IMG/VR virus record: IMGVR_UViG_2859783438_000001
DNA from: a virus
Lineage: Duplodnaviria > Heunggongvirae > Uroviricota > Caudoviricetes
Direction: 5' to 3' (one strand)
DNA: 15,742 bases
The notes under the pieces were generated by a model, which was not told where the DNA came from, did no database searches, and saw nothing but the letters and a program-made list of their open reading frames with translations. The position numbers and the translations under genes were made by a program. This document shows positions 1-15,742 of the stretch, in pieces (position 1 is the first letter of the stretch; each line of letters starts with the position of its first letter).

Positions 1-483
1 ATGACGAAGAAAAAAGCACATAAACCTGGTTCAGCGACCATCGCGCTTAACAAGCGCGCCCGTCACGAATACTTTATCGAAGAAGAGTTCGAAGCGGGAC
101 TTGCCCTGCAAGGCTGGGAAGTTAAATCCCTGCGCGCAGGAAAAGCCAATATCAGCGACAGCTACGTCCTTCTGCGTGACGGAGAGGCATTTCTGTTTGG
201 CGCTAACATCACGCCAATGGCCGTGGCCTCCACGCATGTGGTGTGCGATCCTACCCGTACCCGCAAGTTACTTCTCAACCAGCGCGAACTGGACTCATTG
301 TACGGTCGCGTCAATCGAGAAGGCTATACCGTAGTGGCGCTCTCCCTGTACTGGAAAAATGCCTGGTGCAAAGTGAAAATCGGCGTCGCCAAAGGTAAAA
401 AACAGCACGATAAACGTTCAGATATCAAAGAACGCGAATGGCAGGTGGATAAAGCACGTATCATGAAAAACGCCCACCGTTAA
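1..483 (+). CDS. smpB: SsrA-binding protein SmpB (trans-translation)
   Basis: 160-aa ORF with ATG at 1 and TAA at 481-483. The translation ([56 protein letters not shown]...) is recognised as enterobacterial SmpB, and it sits directly upstream of ssrA as in E. coli. Confidence 0.96.
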
Positions 484-697: not shown

Positions 698-1060
698 GGG
701 GCTGATTCTGGATTCGACGGGATTTGCGAAACCCAAGGTGCATGCCGAGGGGCGGTTGGCCTCGTAAAAAGCCGCAAAAAATAGTCGCAAACGACGAAAA
801 CTACGCTTTAGCAGCTTAATAACCTGCTTAGAGCCCTCTCTCCCTAGCCTCCGCTCTTAGGACGGGGATCAAGAGAGGTCAAACCCAAAAGAGATCGCGT
901 GGAAGCCCTGCCTGGGGTTGAAGCGTTAAAACTTAATCAGGCTAGTTTGTTAGTGGCGTGTCCGTCCGCAGCTGGCAAGCGAATGTAAAGACTGACTAAG
1001 CATGTAGTACCGAGGATGTAGGAATTTCGGACGCGGGTTCAACTCCCGCCAGCTCCACCA
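698..1060 (+). ncRNA. ssrA: tmRNA (SsrA, 10Sa RNA), 363 nt
   Basis: Begins GGGGCTGATTCTGGATTCGACGGG and ends ...GGGTTCAACTCCCGCCAGCTCCACCA, a tRNA-Ala-like acceptor/T-arm with CCA. The internal tag reading frame GCA AAC GAC GAA AAC TAC GCT TTA GCA GCT TAA (787-819) encodes ANDENYALAA-stop. Length and sequence match E. coli ssrA. Confidence 0.96.
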
Positions 1061-5089: not shown

Positions 5090-5098
5090 TGCGCCCCC
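5090..5098. repeat. Target-site duplication, left copy (TGCGCCCCC) of IS1 copy 1
   Basis: Identical 9-mer directly abuts both ends of the element (5090-5098 and 5548-5556). Confidence 0.9.
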
Positions 5099-5547
5099 GG
5101 TGATGCTGCCAACTTACTGATTTAGTGTATGATGGTGTTTTTGAGGTGCTCCAGTGGCTTCTGTTTCTATCAGCTGTCCCTCCTGTTCAGCTACTGACGG
5201 GGTGGTGCGTAACGGCAAAAGCACTGCCGGACATCAGCGCTATCTCTGCTCTCACTGCCGTAAAACATGGCAACTGCAGTTCACTTACACCGCTTCTCAA
5301 CCCGGTACGCGTGGTGATATGGATGACGGATGGCTGGCCGCTGTATGAATCCCGCCTGAAGGGAAAGCTGCACGTAATCAGCAAGCGATATACGCAGCGA
5401 ATTGAGCGGCATAACCTGAATCTGAGGCAGCACCTGGCACGGCTGGGACGGAAGTCGCTGTCGTTCTCAAAATCGGTGGAGCTGCATGACAAAGTCATCG
5501 GGCATTATCTGAACATAAAACACTATCAATAAGTTGGAGTCATTACC
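5099..5547 (+). mobile_element. IS1 derivative with internal deletion (449 bp versus 768 bp for intact IS1)
   Basis: Starts GGTGATGCTGCCAACTTACTGAT (IRL) and ends ...AAGTTGGAGTCATTACC (IRR). The insA 5' region is joined directly to the 3' part of insB at ...CCGGTACGC/GTGGTGATATGG. Confidence 0.9.
5154..5348 (+). CDS. insA: Truncated InsA (N-terminal zinc-finger region, HTH region deleted) fused to 12 out-of-frame codons
   Basis: [52 protein letters not shown] matches the start of IS1 InsA and then diverges at the deletion junction. Confidence 0.6.
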
Positions 5548-7059: not shown

Positions 7060-8136
7060 TTACGAAGAGAAAACCCGTTCATCAGAAATCCTCCTCAACA
7101 TTTTTTTCTTCCTGGCGGTAACAGGCTCGGGGAGATAAGCATCTGCCGGGCCAACCCGTAATTCAGTCGTCGTGCCCCGGTCGTCCTGGTTATAGGTAAC
7201 TTCTGCGATCACCAGTTCATCATTATCAAAATTATTCAGCGGGTCGAAAACGATGACAGATAACCCCGGACGCCATAACGCGCCACTGCCCTGCCGCCAG
7301 CCCTGAACCGTATATGTTGTCTCACGGGTAAGCGCAGCCCGTTGGCGCGCTTCAAATTCACAACGGGCCTTACAGGTTGCTGTCGTTGCTGTGCCTGACT
7401 GCTGAATCAACAAAGGGCGATAACGGGTCACGCCACTGTCCTGAATGGTCTGACGTATTGCGGCAATGGTGGCCTCACCAAAATCATCGTCGTTGCCCGG
7501 GCGCTGCCCACTGACCTGATATTCAGAAAACCGCTCTCTGATGCTTCTTTCCGTGTCACAGGAAAGAATATTCTCTCCCAGCACCAGCGCCGTCGCCGCT
7601 TTACCTGTTCCGGGTTTTCCCAGAACCAGTCGCCCGCATTCATCGTCATAAGCCAGCGTCTGAACCTGCCCCAGTAACCGGTTAAGACAATCGGCAACGG
7701 TTTCGCCGTGTTCCGGCTGGGCATCAATCACCGCTGTCTGCGGCACGCCAGCATCAACAACGGTGATGCCAAATGGCGCAGCCAGTTCACTGACTATTCT
7801 GAGCAGGTTTTTTCCGCTCTGCTGGAGTGGCAAAGCAGAGCAGTCAACCAGATCGGCTGTTTTGCTTCGCCCGACAATTCCCATGCTGACGCTGCTGGCG
7901 TCATAACGAAGCGGTAGTGCCTCCACATATCCGGTGAGCACAGGCTCATCCCCGATAAGCACTTCAACCAGCTCACCATTTTTTATCCGGGGTTGATAAT
8001 CCCGGCTTCCGGGCCAGCGGGTGGTAATGGCAACATTAAAATCCCGGGCAATACGGTTAATGCCCGCACTGATACGGACGGATGTCCAGCCGCCCCATTC
8101 GCGACCGGAAACCCGAAGTAAAACGGTATCATTCAT
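7060..8136 (-). CDS. Phage tail/baseplate protein (Mu gp44 P-like, P2 gpD-like)
   Basis: 358-aa ORF whose ATG overlaps the stop of the upstream gene by 4 nt. Order and size are conserved with Mu. Confidence 0.8.
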   Translation of the reverse strand: MNDTVLLRVSGREWGGWTSVRISAGINRIARDFNVAITTRWPGSRDYQPRIKNGELVEVLIGDEPVLTGYVEALPLRYDASSVSMGIVGRSKTADLVDCSALPLQQSGKNLLRIVSELAAPFGITVVDAGVPQTAVIDAQPEHGETVADCLNRLLGQVQTLAYDDECGRLVLGKPGTGKAATALVLGENILSCDTERSIRERFSEYQVSGQRPGNDDDFGEATIAAIRQTIQDSGVTRYRPLLIQQSGTATTATCKARCEFEARQRAALTRETTYTVQGWRQGSGALWRPGLSVIVFDPLNNFDNDELVIAEVTYNQDDRGTTTELRVGPADAYLPEPVTARKKKMLRRISDERVFSS

Positions 8137-9524
8137 CTGACGGGTACCCTTAATGCCCTGACCGGAACAAAGCCCGGATGAGAGATGGCATTTCGATCCA
8201 GGATATCAGTTTCACGGGACGCATCGTCGTACCATGACGCAGCCAGAACAAGCGCAGGCAGAACTTCCGCTGGCGTTCGCTCTGCGGTTTCCTCCGTCTG
8301 AACCAGACGCGCCTGAATATCCCGGTTCAGTTCTGTACGTAATGACGTCAGCTGAAAAAACAGCCTGTCATCCGCCGTACGCCTGAGCTCCTGTTCAATC
8401 GCCGCGTTCAGCGATTCGCGTATGATGGTGAGATTTTCCCGCGTGGGTGGTTGCGCTCTCTCATCCTGTCCTGTGCTGGCTGCCACGCTGTCAAGTGCCG
8501 GATGAGAAACGTGAATAATATCGGACTGACGTTCAGTGGAACCACCAACAGCCACAACCGCCTGCTGATTTTTCACCAGGCTTCCGGGTTGTGGCAGTGA
8601 AGTGACCGCCCTTGTGGCTTCGCTGATTGCCGTCGTCCGGATGACAGCAGCCACAAGGTTTGTCTGCTGTTTTTGCCTGATAACCGATGCGGAATCTGTG
8701 GGCCACACCGCACGCGGTGCCAGTCCTGGGTCCAGCGTAATGCCGGACATTGTCGTTATGGACTGCACCAGATCCTGTGTGTTATCCACCAGCCGGGTTC
8801 CGGCCCGCCAGGTATCCTGCAACGTATGCACAAAATCACTGGCAACCGACGGCGGCATCAGAATGACGGATAAATCGCCCTGCAGTAGTCTCGCTCCGGC
8901 AGAAACAGCCGAATTAACCATTTTGAAAGCTGTCTGAACGGTTCCCAGCATATCGGTCGTCCGGGCAATAACATCGTTCTGAATAAAGTCCGGTATTCCC
9001 GCGAGATCAAAATCGCCGAACATGTCTTCAATCAACTCATCCAGGAATACGGACGACTCCTCCAGTTTTCTGGCGGTTGCAGCTCCGGCGACCGGAAATG
9101 ACAGTTCCCCGCTCTCAACAAACTGAAATGAAACCCGGCACATACGGCCTTCAGTGCCGGAGTGAGAAACGGTCACCTGCCCGTCAATACAGCCCTGCAT
9201 TTCACCGAACTGCGGATGGATCAGCGTCCCCGGCCCGGCGGTTTCAATCGCTGTAATCAGCCTGTCGCGCTGCTCTGCGTAATCATCACCAACGAGATAC
9301 GCATTAATCGTCAGCCGTCGCGTGGCACGCCCGAGATCTTCCGTGTACGGTTTGTCACGGTTTGGGTATTCATGGACCTGAACGCGGCGTCCGAACGAAC
9401 CCTCGTCGCTCTCCACCGAAAACGGAACGCCACGAAATGAAGCGTCGTAAAGATTATCGCGCCAATTGATACCTGAAGATGCAGAAAAGAGTGAAGAAAG
9501 AGAAGGTAAAGAAGGTAAGTCCAT
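8133..9524 (-). CDS. Phage DNA circulation protein (Mu gp43 N-like)
   Basis: 463-aa ORF with ATG at 9524 preceded by GGAGA at 5-nt spacing. Lies between the tape measure and the baseplate genes as in Mu. Confidence 0.8.
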   Translation of the reverse strand: MDLPSLPSLSSLFSASSGINWRDNLYDASFRGVPFSVESDEGSFGRRVQVHEYPNRDKPYTEDLGRATRRLTINAYLVGDDYAEQRDRLITAIETAGPGTLIHPQFGEMQGCIDGQVTVSHSGTEGRMCRVSFQFVESGELSFPVAGAATARKLEESSVFLDELIEDMFGDFDLAGIPDFIQNDVIARTTDMLGTVQTAFKMVNSAVSAGARLLQGDLSVILMPPSVASDFVHTLQDTWRAGTRLVDNTQDLVQSITTMSGITLDPGLAPRAVWPTDSASVIRQKQQTNLVAAVIRTTAISEATRAVTSLPQPGSLVKNQQAVVAVGGSTERQSDIIHVSHPALDSVAASTGQDERAQPPTRENLTIIRESLNAAIEQELRRTADDRLFFQLTSLRTELNRDIQARLVQTEETAERTPAEVLPALVLAASWYDDASRETDILDRNAISHPGFVPVRALRVPVR

Positions 9525-9952: not shown

Positions 9953-10416
9953 GGTAATGACTCCAACTTATTGATAGTGTTTTATGTTCAGATAATGCCC
10001 GATGACTTTGTCATGCAGCTCCACCGATTTTGAGAACGACAGCGACTTCCGTCCCAGCCGTGCCAGGTGCTGCCTCAGATTCAGGTTATGCCGCTCAATT
10101 CGCTGCGTATATCGCTTGCTGATTACGTGCAGCTTTCCCTTCAGGCGGGATTCATACAGCGGCCAGCCATCCGTCATCCATATCACCACGTCAAAGGGTG
10201 ACAGCCGTACCGGGTTGAGAAGCGGTGTAAGTGAACTGCAGTTGCCATGTTTTACGGCAGTGAGAGCAGAGATAGCGCTGATGTCCGGCAGTGCTTTTGC
10301 CGTTACGCACCACCCCGTCAGTAGCTGAACAGGAGGGACAGCTGATAGAAACAGAAGCCACTGGAGCACCTCAAAAACACCATCATACACTAAATCAGTA
10401 AGTTGGCAGCATCACC
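9953..10416 (-). mobile_element. IS1 derivative with internal deletion (464 bp), inverted relative to copy 1
   Basis: Ends GGTAATGACTCCAACTTATTGAT (9953...) and ...AGTAAGTTGGCAGCATCACC (10416). Same deletion junction as copy 1 but keeps 15 extra bp (GCTGTCACCCTTTGA). Confidence 0.9.
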
Positions 10417-10425
10417 GTTTTAACG
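10417..10425. repeat. Target-site duplication (GTTTTAACG) of IS1 copy 2, second copy
   Basis: Identical to 9944-9952. Confidence 0.9.
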
Positions 10426-10593
10426 TTACTAATAAATCGTGAAACAATCTCCTCATTTGTTAGTATTTTCGCCTGAGCACAGCAAGAGGTTAATATTGCA
10501 ACCGTCATTAAAAATGGCTTTATCACAAAACAAACTCCATTGTTAGCATGTTACGCGATAATTTTGCCTCATCTTTCACCACAAAAAAAGAAC

Positions 10594-12543
10594 TCACCTT
10601 TTAAATGGAGAATACCCAACATCATGGGTGATTTTCATAAAGGGATCGCCTGTTTTCGGCAAATCGATAACGCGCATTCCAGGCGGCGCGTTGTCAAACG
10701 TCACCTTAAGTTCGCTGCGGGTTGCCGGTGAAGATGCAAGGCTTAACAGCTGATTCCTTTCCAGTGATACATTCGGGGTGTAGCGTTTATCGGGAGATAA
10801 ATACCCATCACCACGTGGCATCTGCCATCCGGTCATGTCATAGACAAAATCATGGAACTGTTTGCCCCACTCGTCGAACTTATCATTCAGACCAAATCCA
10901 CTGTTCAGTGCATCAGCCACAAAATTTTTAACAAGCCAGGGATGTGCTTTTTCAAACTCCTGCGCCATCATGCCCAGTTCAAGCAATCCACCAATCAGAC
11001 TGATCTTTCCGAGGCCCTTTAATTTCAGCCCTGTTTTTCCTGCCGCCGTTGTCCATTGATTCTGGGCGACTGTTGCCGCACGAATACTTGCCACCGCCTT
11101 CACACCAATATACAGGGCAGAAACCGTTGCTATTGTTTTTACTGCCTGTTCCCATCCCCCCATTGCTCTGACAACCTGATCAACCTCCTGCCAGACTTTT
11201 TTCACAACCGGACCGACCGTTTCCCAGTTATCAATTATGAGATATGCACCACCGACGAGAAGCGCAATTAATCCCTTTGCCGGCGTCATATTCATCACGC
11301 TACCCATGATTTTTGTTATGCGTGTCAATGTGCCAATCGCCACGCCCATCGTCAGTAATGCCGCACCAGTTTTCGCGATGGTTTTTACGACCTCAGGATT
11401 TTCTCTGACAAACGTGCGCACTTCTTCCAGAAAAGGCTTCATCTCTTTTATGCCTTCATTGAGTGAAGGCAGGAAGGTTTCCCCCAGCGTGGAAGAAATC
11501 GCATTGATCTGGTTCTGCAGCAGCAACAACTGATTTTCTGTCGTCGCGGCACGGGCGGCATATTCTTTCTGCATTGAGCCGCCATACTGCTGCGCATCCG
11601 CCACACGATTAAAGTTGGTTCGCAACAAATCCAGATTCGTGAGCAGCGGCGCAATGGCCCCCAGGGATTCCTTCCCGAACAGCGCTTTCAGCACAGCAGC
11701 CTGTTTTTCTTTCGGCACTTTTGCCAGAGAATCCAGTACGTGCAGCATGGCCCCGCGGGCGTCTTTCTGCATATCCGCCGCCAGTTTTTTCGGGCTAATG
11801 CGCAACGAGCGGAGCACTTTTTTCTGCGATTTGGTGGCAGAATCCCTCGCTGTCAGCGACAACATAAAATTCTTTATCCCCGTCGCAGCAATTTCTGACT
11901 CCACCCCCATTCCGGCAATGGTTGCCCCCATTGCGGCAATCTCTCCGGAGGCCACACCCGCAACACTGCCTAAAGGGCCAATACGGGTCACAACATCAGA
12001 AATCTTTTTCGCACTTGCAGGACCGGTATTACCAAGATAGTTAATCTTATCCGCAAGCCCTGCCACCTCTCCCTGTGTCAGTTTAAAGGCAGTGCGCCAC
12101 TGCGCCATCATCTGACCGGATTCTTCTGCCGTGGTGTCAAAGGCCACGCCCATCTTCACGGCATCGTCAGTAAACTGCATCAGCTCGTCACGGGCGATAC
12201 CAGCCTGACCACCCGCCGCCACAATTTCGGCGATACCTTCCGCCGACATGGGCAGTTCTGTTGACAGGTCGCGCACCTGCTCCGTCATTGCCTTAAACGC
12301 TTCCGGCGTATCCAGACCATCCACCACTTTCCGGACATCCGCCATTTTTGATTCAAGGGCAATGGCAGATTTGACCGGGAGCGCCAGCGCCCCCAGTACT
12401 GCGGTTCCGGCACCCGCTGCGCCCAGTAACAGGCTGGCAAACTCCTTTTTAAAACCTTTCAGCTGGCGCTGCATTCCCTTCAGCGGTGCCGATACCTTAT
12501 CCACGGCAGTGATGATCGCCTTCAGCTGAAAACTGTCAGCCAT
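10594..12543 (-). CDS. Phage tail tape measure protein
   Basis: 649-aa ORF with ATG at 12543 preceded by GAGGAG. Ala/Gly-rich with hydrophobic segments, and placed after the tail chaperone gene. Confidence 0.88.
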   Translation of the reverse strand: MADSFQLKAIITAVDKVSAPLKGMQRQLKGFKKEFASLLLGAAGAGTAVLGALALPVKSAIALESKMADVRKVVDGLDTPEAFKAMTEQVRDLSTELPMSAEGIAEIVAAGGQAGIARDELMQFTDDAVKMGVAFDTTAEESGQMMAQWRTAFKLTQGEVAGLADKINYLGNTGPASAKKISDVVTRIGPLGSVAGVASGEIAAMGATIAGMGVESEIAATGIKNFMLSLTARDSATKSQKKVLRSLRISPKKLAADMQKDARGAMLHVLDSLAKVPKEKQAAVLKALFGKESLGAIAPLLTNLDLLRTNFNRVADAQQYGGSMQKEYAARAATTENQLLLLQNQINAISSTLGETFLPSLNEGIKEMKPFLEEVRTFVRENPEVVKTIAKTGAALLTMGVAIGTLTRITKIMGSVMNMTPAKGLIALLVGGAYLIIDNWETVGPVVKKVWQEVDQVVRAMGGWEQAVKTIATVSALYIGVKAVASIRAATVAQNQWTTAAGKTGLKLKGLGKISLIGGLLELGMMAQEFEKAHPWLVKNFVADALNSGFGLNDKFDEWGKQFHDFVYDMTGWQMPRGDGYLSPDKRYTPNVSLERNQLLSLASSPATRSELKVTFDNAPPGMRVIDLPKTGDPFMKITHDVGYSPFKR

Positions 12544-13318: not shown

Positions 13319-14814
13319 TATGCTGACTCCTCTGAATACTGAAGACGGAACTGGTTAACCACCGCAAAGACACGTAACTGATTAACATAATCCGGCGGGA
13401 ACAGCGTATTCAGTCGGTTCGGGTTATCTGCATCACGCTCAACTATCAGATACTGTTTAAACAGATCGTAATTTTCCACAATACCGGCACGCTCCATCTG
13501 ACGATATGTCGCCAGAAGTTCCCCTTTGATAACGGCAGGAGTGACAATCGCCTGCCCCGGACCAAAACGGGTACCATCATTTGCCAGCTTGTGACGTCCG
13601 TACTTGCTTGTGATGACCGATTTCAGTTTGCGAAGAACATATGCACTGGTATGCAGAGTTTCACTGTCCAGATAGCTGTTGTCTGCCACGCCATACGCAT
13701 TCTTTTTGTAGGTGGTTACGGAACGCTGGATCTGCAACGTGCCGCCTTCCACATAAGCCGTCGCCACGCCGTGAGATAAAAGGGTCTGCTGCTCTGTCAT
13801 GATGAATCGCTTACCTTTCGGTGCCGGAAGCATCCCCACCAGCTCCCCCGTCTGTGTCGGACGGGCAGGATCATTCCGGATAAATACCGCTTCACGGGCA
13901 AGGCGACTGGCAACCAGTTCATCGACAGGCGACTGGGTTTCTTTTTCGTAACCGGCAAGCGTGATATGTTGCTGATTATGCATATCTCCGGCACCAACCA
14001 GCTCTGACAGCGTTCCCAGTTTTGCGGTATAGACATGCCCGTATAACTGGCGCGCATAACTCCAGCGACCGCTGCTGTCATTCATTTCGGTCATCATCAT
14101 ATTGATGGAGGCGGCATCGTTGAACGGCAGACCGATAAAGTCGAATGCCTCATCGCCCATAGCAGCAACAGCGGCGGTAAGATCAGGCGCTCCGCTACCG
14201 GCAGCACCGACTTCCGTCACCACCCGAAGCCCTGCTGGCAGAATCTCACCACCACCAGAACCATAATAATTCAGACAGACCGGTAACTCATTACCATACA
14301 GCCCCTTATGACGGGCAGTCAGCGTCACCACACCTGCATCAGATGACGCCGTAAACGGCAGGGTGATAACCCCGTTTACCGCTTCCTTAATCGCGGTGGC
14401 AACCGCAGTGGCATCATCGCCATTCACCACAGGCACCTGTACACGGGAGCGCCCGACATACAGACTCAGGGTGCCGCTTTCCTCTGCTTCTCCGGCAACC
14501 GTCACCCTGACCGTCGCCGCCGCCCCTCTGGCTTCCGGTACTGCAATAACATACAGTTCACCGAAAGGATCTGTCTGACGGTAGACTTCCACCATACGCG
14601 CCAGCTGGCTCCCCGCCCCACAAATCTGGCGGGCATAATCTGCCGATGGCATCAGCACCAGGCTGTTAACCTCAATGGCTGCATCGTTGCTGGCATGCCC
14701 GATCAGTAATGCAGGCGCGCTGGTCACCGCTGTATTTGCCGCAGAATTGTTCATCTCGGCGTAGAACAACGGCACCAGCGTATTCGACGGAACAGTATTA
14801 AAACTTATCGTCAT
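13318..14814 (-). CDS. Contractile tail sheath protein (Mu gpL-like)
   Basis: 498-aa ORF with ATG at 14814, directly upstream of the tube gene. Size is typical of sheath proteins. Confidence 0.88.
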   Translation of the reverse strand: MTISFNTVPSNTLVPLFYAEMNNSAANTAVTSAPALLIGHASNDAAIEVNSLVLMPSADYARQICGAGSQLARMVEVYRQTDPFGELYVIAVPEARGAAATVRVTVAGEAEESGTLSLYVGRSRVQVPVVNGDDATAVATAIKEAVNGVITLPFTASSDAGVVTLTARHKGLYGNELPVCLNYYGSGGGEILPAGLRVVTEVGAAGSGAPDLTAAVAAMGDEAFDFIGLPFNDAASINMMMTEMNDSSGRWSYARQLYGHVYTAKLGTLSELVGAGDMHNQQHITLAGYEKETQSPVDELVASRLAREAVFIRNDPARPTQTGELVGMLPAPKGKRFIMTEQQTLLSHGVATAYVEGGTLQIQRSVTTYKKNAYGVADNSYLDSETLHTSAYVLRKLKSVITSKYGRHKLANDGTRFGPGQAIVTPAVIKGELLATYRQMERAGIVENYDLFKQYLIVERDADNPNRLNTLFPPDYVNQLRVFAVVNQFRLQYSEESA

Positions 14815-14876
14815 GATTTTTTAGCCTTATCCTTGAGGTGTACTGGCAATAGCGGACACTACCATTTGTTCTTTTT

Positions 14877-15029
14877 TTAAGCAGCCATCTGATGATATTT
14901 TTCCCTGAAGGCTGCCGGGGAGATATTCCCCAGACGAGAGTGACGACGCTGACGATTGTAGAAAATCTCAATGTATTCCCGTATTACTGAGATGGCTTCA
15001 TCCCGGTTATTAAAACGATAGTGGCTCAG
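14877..15029 (-). CDS. IS3-family transposase OrfB, C-terminal fragment (partial at gap)
   Basis: Translation ...IEIFYNRQRRHSRLGNISPAAFREKYHQMAA-stop has the typical C-terminal motif of IS3-family OrfB. Confidence 0.7.
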   Translation of the reverse strand: MSHYRFNNRDEAISVIREYIEIFYNRQRRHSRLGNISPAAFREKYHQMAA

Positions 15030-15129
15030 NNNNNNNNNNNNNNNNNNNNNNNNNNNNNNNNNNNNNNNNNNNNNNNNNNNNNNNNNNNNNNNNNNNNNNN
15101 NNNNNNNNNNNNNNNNNNNNNNNNNNNNN
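15030..15129. other. Assembly gap (100 N)
   Basis: Run of exactly 100 N characters. Sequence and true length are unknown. Confidence 0.99.
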
Positions 15130-15318
15130 CAGTTCAGCCACCGTGCGGGAACCAGGAGTACCGAGCCCTTTTCTGGCGGCGGTAACCCATTGTCCTAAAG
15201 TGCCTTCAGGAAGAGATAATCGGGAAGCGCCTTCACTGATCGAAAGTTGATTTTCAAGAACCGTTCTGACAGCTTCGGCTTTGAACTCTTTAGAGTAACG
15301 TTGGGTTTTTCTGCTCAT
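15130..15318 (-). CDS. IS3-family (IS600-like) transposase OrfA, N-terminal part (partial at gap)
   Basis: MSRKTQRYSKEFKAEAVRTVLENQLSISEGASRLSLPEGTLGQWVTAARKGLGTPGSRTVAEL, ATG at 15318. Confidence 0.8.
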
Positions 15319-15379
15319 TATTAGCTCCTTCTGATGCCATTCTATTTCAGGAAGGAGCGTCCGTTAAACTCAGGCTACC

Positions 15380-15742
15380 TCAGTCTTTCAGGACGTACCC
15401 AATAGAAAGGCCGGTTAACGAACCGGCCTTCATGTGTGCATGTGCACGTTTTGCGAGGGGATCATCATCAATAAGCAACCGTCCCCTGACGTAAAGCCCG
15501 ACATCGTCTTCCTTCATTTCGGTGTAAACACCGATGGGTTCATCCATGCGGTGCTGCCAGAGCAGCGCAGGTAACGCTTTTCTGTCACTCCACGCCCGCA
15601 GGGAAGCAGCAAATGCCCCGGACATCACCACATCATCGTGGCTGTCCTTTACACCAAAGACGGAGCCATACCCTTCAAACTCACCGGAGTCACTGACAGA
15701 TTTCAGACTCAGCGGTACATCAAGACGTTGTTTCGTCTGCAT
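15380..15742 (-). pseudogene. Prohead protease (HK97-type family) truncated at codon 120 by the IS600-like element
   Basis: ATG at the window edge (15742). The translation MQTKQRLDVPLSLKSVSDSGEFEGYGSVFGVKDSHDDVVMSGAFAASL... resembles prohead proteases but stops at a TGA that is the terminal TGA of the IS inverted repeat (15380-15382). Normal length is about 200+ aa. Confidence 0.7.

Follow-up and report, generated by a model that had tools for sequence, protein, structure and literature searches.

One IS600 element in place of head and neck genes in a phiP27-like prophage remnant assigned to Shigella sonnei

Prophages of the phiP27-like type combine an HK97-type head with a Mu-like contractile tail and a P27-family small terminase. 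The window analysed here (the whole stretch of 15,742 nucleotides filed as IMG/VR virus record IMGVR_UViG_2859783438_000001) departs from that plan: its prohead protease gene stops short, an insertion sequence containing a run of 100 Ns follows, and the next phage gene is the one for the tail sheath (Table 1). The locus therefore raises the question of whether the head genes were deleted beside a single insertion sequence or lie between two copies of it, hidden behind the gap, and, if they were deleted, by what route. The insertion sequence is IS600, a member of the IS3 family first described from Shigella sonnei; elements of this kind produce orfA and orfB as a fusion through -1 frameshifting, and their simple insertion generates a 3-bp duplication of the target.

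Table 1. Coordinates of the features in the 15,742-nt window.
Feature	Position	Strand	Description
smpB	1-483	+	Identified by Pfam
ssrA (tmRNA gene)	698-1060	+	Tag peptide ANDENYALAA
Tail sheath gene, intact, 498 aa	13318..14814	-	Pfam Phage_sheath_1, Phage_sheath_1C, Phage_sheath_domII
Native phage DNA, 19 nt	14815..14833	-	3' end of the DUF2635 gene, including the sheath ribosome-binding region; right-hand deletion breakpoint
IS600, right part, nt 1069-1264	14834..15029	-	Last 50 codons of orfB and right inverted repeat
orfB, 3' end	15029->14880, stop 14879-14877	-	rve_2 E 6e-10; rve_3
N gap, 100 N	15030-15129		Most probably 815 bp of IS600 interior, nt 254-1068
IS600, left part, nt 1-253	15130..15382	-	Left inverted repeat TGAGGTAGCC..., its own promoter-like site, orfA codons 1-63
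orfA, codons 1-63	15318->15130	-	HTH_Tnp_1 E 2e-16; begins MSRKTQRYSKEFK...
Prohead protease fragment, HK97-family	15383..15742	-	5' 360 nt, codons 1-120 of 216; Peptidase_S78 E 7e-21

Both junctions of the element can be read directly in the window. On the minus strand, the protease reading frame opens with an ATG whose first letter is the window's final base (15742) and spans 120 codons as far as 15383, where it ends in ...CTG AAA GAC; its stop codon is the TGA at 15382-15380, which consists of the first three bases of IS600, so that the junction reads ...CTG AAA GAC followed immediately by TGAGGTAGCCTGAG. The fragment matches positions 6-115 of the 165 in the Peptidase_S78 profile (E 6.9e-21, 75.5 bits against a cut-off of 21). 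A full-length protease would have 216 aa and be followed by the major capsid gene; here only codons 1-120 are present and the capsid gene is missing, and the fragment is a pseudogene fragment. At the other side, the last base of IS600 is 14834, and the 19 nt of phage DNA at 14833-14815 (AGGATAAGGCTAAAAAATC) separate it from the sheath ATG at 14814, with which the surviving Mu-like tail module begins. Read on the minus strand, the element is flanked by the triplets GAC and AGG (GTC and CCT on the plus strand), which form no 3-bp duplication. The original prediction, made from the letters of the window, had described an IS600-like element with a scaffold gap in place of the head module, a protease stopped after codon 120 by the TGA of the IS terminus, a far IS end 19 nt upstream of the sheath start and no target duplication, and all of these are seen in the sequence. 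The extent of 14834-15742 that it gave for the element is correct for 14834-15382 only, the remainder being phage DNA.

The left end of the element extends, in its longer form, through TGAGGTAGCCTGAGTTTAACGG to a ribosome-binding site and orfA, and the right end finishes with ...CCAGTACACCTCA (in longer form ...GCTATTGCCAGTACACCTCA). The terminal inverted repeats are imperfect and bounded by TG...CA, as appears when the left end is set beside the reverse complement of the right end, TGAGGTGTACTGGC.... The two end pieces present in the window (253 and 196 bp) are 100% identical to the copy in a closed genome, L003, where the left piece occupies positions 10361-10613; over its 1264 bp, the complete element of that genome (L003 10361-11624) shares 99.8% identity with copies that carry the annotation 'IS3-like element IS600 family transposase', a pattern that is not due to chance. 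Pfam searches identified HTH_Tnp_1 in orfA and HTH_21, rve and rve_3/rve_2 in orfB, and orfB lies in the -1 frame relative to orfA, a putative 385-aa fused OrfAB being annotated in several assemblies. Every tested feature of IS600 was found apart from the 3-bp target duplication (GAC versus AGG). Because the neighbouring DNA appears to have been deleted, the missing duplication is no argument against membership in IS600.

What lies behind the gap can be judged from closed relatives. The exact 120-aa protease fragment occurs in 674 blocks of the assembly collection and is recorded on 622 contigs; since the sources name this protein 'HK97 family phage prohead protease [Shigella sonnei]' and 'putative prohead protease [Shigella sonnei Ss046]', the window is assigned to Shigella sonnei. 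As a closed comparison set we used nine chromosome-size assemblies of 4.8-5.0 Mb that carry the exact protein (L003-L011). Their gene order is clpB, a yfiH-like gene, a rluD-like gene, bamD (YfiO), an IS4-type transposase and the 120-aa protease fragment, beyond which come one IS3-type element and then the sheath, tube, chaperone and tape-measure genes. The spacing between the two junctions is 1264 bp in eight of these genomes and 1263 bp in the ninth, and the flanks are GAC and AGG in all nine. BLAST alignments of the window to the closed genomes show 100% identity across the 613 bp ahead of the gap and 99.96-99.98% across the 4825 bp behind it, and the edges of the gap map to L003 10613 and 11429, an interval of 815 bp that contains the remainder of orfA, the frameshift region and most of orfB. 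The same arrangement was returned independently, in L018 and L021, by a lookup of the sheath protein. As both flanks are near-identical to those of closed genomes with a single copy, the gap most probably hides only these 815 bp of IS600 interior and no genes. Head genes had been predicted to be missing between protease and sheath, and the closed relatives agree, holding only one IS600 there. The arrangement is already known, being present in finished S. sonnei genomes including Ss046 (the reference genome of 2005), and the deletion event is apparently old and common to sequenced S. sonnei.

The extent of the loss becomes visible by comparison with intact prophages. In the prophage of E. coli FDAARGOS_944 (L001), which BLAST aligns with 100% identity to the window at both breakpoints, the protease fragment corresponds to L001 9001-9362 and the 19-nt flank matches L001 12872-12890 exactly; the homology to intact prophages, which resumes at L001 12872, starts precisely at the end of IS600. 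The L001 interval between the breakpoints measures 3509 bp (3511 bp if the shared TG is counted to the IS terminus) and contains protease codons 121-216 and the genes for the major capsid protein, the head-tail connector, the head closure protein, a 174-aa protein, the tail terminator and a DUF2635 protein, the last of which has been lost but for its final 23 nt. Two further prophages, L002 and L015, have the same intact gene order. The comparison with relatives lacking the IS, proposed originally as a check, has thus been run and places the capsid-to-DUF2635 genes between two identical breakpoints; it upholds the predicted IS-associated deletion, for the closed genomes have one IS600 where L001 has 3.51 kb of head and neck genes. 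We consider it very probable that the locus arose by a 3.51-kb deletion of these genes, marked by one complete 1264-bp IS600.

The exact sheath protein of the window is carried by 4015 blocks of the assembly collection, among them both intact prophages and loci that have decayed in other ways. The FDAARGOS_944 prophage is likewise decaying, through different insertion sequences: it contains two ISEc60 elements (IS4-like), at 7652-8842 in the portal gene and at 13365-14555 in the sheath gene, and is also frameshifted in Q and the large terminase. Among loci L013-L022, those that carry the identical sheath protein on chromosomes of 4.4-4.7 Mb, with an ipaH-like gene nearby, are, on our reading, Shigella flexneri. 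In this prophage type several IS600 copies can occur within a few kb (L020). In L020 and L022 an IS600 copy lies in the tail-terminator gene, flanked by an ATG/ATG duplication and with the connector-to-terminator genes still upstream. The same IS600 with the same right flank is found in L013, L014, L016 and L019; its left flank there is a truncated tnpC of the IS66 family, and the 1.6 kb between has been lost. These four loci lack both the duplication and the adjoining DNA; head-gene loss beside IS600 thus took place independently in this second set of genomes. The truncated tnpC itself ends within 2-4 bp of one position, whether it is joined to IS600 (L014 4190-4245) or directly to the 3' part of the capsid gene (L020 2585-2650 and 4200-4245), a hint that a common ancestor carried an IS600 at this spot, which later left by recombination or excision.

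How the deletion arose in S. sonnei has to be reconstructed from its product: one intact IS600, deletion bounds that coincide exactly with both of its ends, and no duplication. We infer that the element is not a simple insertion, because its flanks do not form a 3-bp duplication; this was argued originally from the mismatched triplets, and the same mismatch, GAC versus AGG, recurs in the nine closed genomes. As the most likely route, to which we give somewhat better than an even chance, we hypothesize that two IS600 copies of like orientation inserted, with GAC behind protease codon 120 as the target of one and AGG, 19 nt ahead of the sheath ATG, as that of the other, and that RecA-type homologous recombination between them would then have excised 3.5 kb together with one IS copy. 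Hawkey et al. (2020) list IS600 among five insertion sequences that expanded across all Shigella and present deletions between homologous copies of an IS as a general way in which genes are lost (PMC7373316). Recombination would have been readily available in this prophage type, given the multiple neighbouring IS600 copies in the related loci.

The principal alternative, to which we assign roughly one chance in three, is a one-step, transposase-dependent adjacent deletion, in which a single IS600 at one of the two sites would attack, with one of its ends, a target 3.5 kb away on the same molecule; a variant covered by the same estimate is an excision-enhancer reaction of the IEE type. Either would delete the DNA in between and leave the IS intact with one old and one new flank. 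Such a mechanism predicts the observed product (an intact IS, no duplication, a deletion beginning exactly at the IS terminus), but that product is indistinguishable from the one left by recombination between two copies. Moreover, transposition in the IS3 family is copy-out/paste-in by way of a circle and does not by itself delete adjacent DNA, and the adjacent deletions described for IS629, another member of the family, are IEE-promoted (PMC9330008); several nearby IS600 copies, by comparison, are seen directly in the related loci. A search of 5426 complete E. coli genomes (a match being at least 80% of the query covered), a set in which Shigella diversity is poorly sampled, recovered neither of the junctions and no simple insertion at the two sites, while the two flanks separately are present in thousands of these genomes. 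The reciprocal junctions predicted for the two sites, namely the IS right end, GAC and protease codon 121 onward (CAGTACACCTCA-GAC-TGGGAATACGAC) and the DUF2635 end, AGG and the IS left end (GTGTTAAACAGG-TGAGGTAGCCTGAG), had no match in species-representative genomes or JGI metagenomes, sets that likewise sample Shigella diversity poorly. As no intermediate turned up, recombination between two copies is favoured over one-step deletion as a preference and not as a result.

The claim of a single IS600 in the window's own strain rests on near-identity to its closed relatives, and the way in which the window was assembled has a bearing on it. A draft contig from another assembly (L012, 857 bp) stops at the same base within IS600 as the window's contig, and the longest contig bearing the protease fragment is shorter than 2 kb in 554 of the 674 blocks; the assembly break at this locus is the normal behaviour of short-read assemblers inside a multicopy repeat. 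Elsewhere in the window, two IS1 copies are shortened in the absence of Ns, one at 9953-10417 (464 bp, IS1 nt 212-515 missing) and one at 5098-5547 (450 bp, IS1 nt 213-530 missing); the closed S. sonnei genomes have a full 768-bp IS1 at both sites, and it looks as though contigs had been abutted inside the repeat, from the same cause as the IS600 gap. At 1717/1718, 690 bp of the closed S. sonnei sequence are absent, again without Ns (L023 12885-13574, in the tail-fibre / DUF4376 region); the breakpoints show no repeat, 5 mismatches fall within the next 1717 bp, and the discontinuity could be a real deletion or a mis-join.

Mechanical joining of contigs of this sort (IS1 interiors gone without Ns, and the 690-bp discontinuity) and the frequency of IS-mediated rearrangements in Shigella (PMC7373316) lend some colour to the reading that an inversion or translocation between IS600 copies separated the two junctions in this strain, and that a reference-guided scaffolder rejoined them. 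We regard this as very unlikely, given that both junctions lie on one IS copy in all closed genomes examined, and the head genes would stay lost even if it were true. Least probable is the reading in which two IS600 copies in this strain flank further DNA, possibly the head genes, behind a gap whose 100 Ns conventionally denote an unknown length and with which the window by itself would be compatible: one IS and nothing more is present in each of the nine closed genomes with 100%-identical junctions, the sheath lookup led to the same single copy, the edges of the gap are 253 and 196 bp from the ends of the IS, as short-read contigs entering a repeat would leave them (and as L012 breaks too), and junctions without a duplication are a derived state from which the head genes could not reappear. 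For the lineage, this second possibility offered by the original prediction is refuted by the nine closed genomes with one IS600 each (1264 bp, and 1263 bp in one). The locus serves as a cautionary case, in that a 100-N gap in a multicopy IS of a short-read Shigella assembly most probably stands for the interior of the IS and not for genes; the missing target duplication was the correct flag for a secondary deletion.

Transcription from the element into the tail genes had also been proposed. The orientation is as described, orfA and orfB reading in the same direction as the sheath gene, and a consensus scan of this strand found nothing resembling a terminator from orfB up to the sheath ATG, so that read-through from IS600 into the sheath gene would be possible in principle. 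The only promoter-like site found by the scan is IS600's own at the left end (TTAACG-17-TAGAAT, equivalent to L003 10376-10404). The right end supplies a -35 element in other IS3-family members (PMC9330008). In the window, the scan found no hybrid promoter across the right end of IS600; by eye, a TTGCCA hexamer lies 10 nt from the right tip, the 19-nt flank has no acceptable -10 partner for it, and any start from this hexamer would fall at or beyond the ribosome-binding region. Expression into the sheath gene thus goes without support, there being no hybrid promoter and the tail module being broken by IS1, and there is no indication that expression of the tail genes would matter, given the IS1 insertions downstream. 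That read-through from the IS600 promoter, with the native ribosome-binding region kept, would express the orphan sheath, tube and tape-measure genes and have them retained for a host function is an idea to which we attach hardly any weight.

The deletion beside IS600 is one of several losses. One IS1 copy (5098-5547) lies within the baseplate J gene and the other (9953-10417) between the tape-measure and DNA-circularisation genes, and, in place of the complete order of terminase, portal, protease, capsid, neck and tail genes, the closed genomes have bamD, IS4, 90 bp of the portal gene, the truncated protease gene, IS600 and the sheath gene. With IS1 in baseplate J, the head genes gone and IS4 following after 90 bp of portal gene, the remnant is a dead phiP27-like prophage. 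Since phage homology upstream of the protease lasts only for those 90 bp (the 3' end of the portal gene, followed by the end of IS4 and bamD), the portal, terminase, lysis and regulatory genes are also lost from this place; the original prediction was right about the head module, but the actual loss is much larger. An R-type tailocin (a domesticated headless contractile tail) was considered and rejected, as IS1 interrupts baseplate J and the boundary between the tape-measure and circularisation genes, and there are no lysis or regulatory genes next to the module. The IS600 deletion would have had no functional consequence beyond completing the death of the prophage, the loss upstream of the portal 3' end having come before or after it. 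It is one more instance of the documented IS-driven decay of prophages and genomes in Shigella, and poses no new biological question.

Several observations concern the remainder of the window and its chromosomal surroundings. The remnant's tail-fibre end lies directly against ssrA, a gene that is a classic site of integration; in L024, one of the closed genomes, another element with an integrase follows the tail-fibre end at the place that ssrA and smpB take in the other closed genomes. At the protease side, a first IS4 is found in the region L003 8551-10000 (past the window end at 15742), between the portal remnant and bamD; beyond smpB, at the opposite side, a second one separates ratB from raiA (L025 16288-17619). 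In E. coli K-12, bamD and raiA are neighbours. The whole segment made up of smpB, ssrA and the remnant thus seems to have an IS4 copy on either side, which points to a rearrangement mediated by IS4. The gpP-like baseplate gene (window 7060-8136, minus strand; about 18627-19715 in L003-L011) encodes 350, 358, 360, 362 or 364 aa among closed S. sonnei, a variation that suggests a short in-frame repeat polymorphism; Tandem Repeats Finder at its default score reported no tandem repeats in the window.

Among known systems, the closest isolated phage is the Stx2e phage phiP27, to which L001 9001-13344, from protease to sheath, is 94.4% identical over the whole 4344 bp; phiP27-like E. coli prophages have the same gene order and are 100% identical at both breakpoints. 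Unlike phiP27, the remnant keeps only protease codons 1-120 and the tail module, itself interrupted by two IS1 copies, and is without head, neck, portal, terminase, lysis and regulatory genes. The insertion sequence resembles IS600 in its length of 1264 bp, its TG...CA ends, the helix-turn-helix domain of orfA and the rve (DDE) domains of orfB, and differs from an IS600 that has undergone simple insertion in lacking the 3-bp duplication, its interior being represented in the window by 100 N. The loci read as S. flexneri are alike in their identical sheath, the partial or complete loss of head genes, and an IS600 that stands at the edge of the deletion and is oriented with the tail genes. They differ in that IS600 lies inside the tail-terminator gene, as against 19 nt before the sheath in S. 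sonnei, that the partner at the left is a truncated IS66-family element, as against the protease, and that the simple-insertion form with its ATG duplication still exists there. Finally, the deletion recalls those of IEE type associated with IS629 in enterohaemorrhagic E. coli, where an IS3-family element is likewise left intact and the deletion starts exactly at its end (PMC9330008); IS629 is linked there to IEE, whose part in S. sonnei would be hypothetical.
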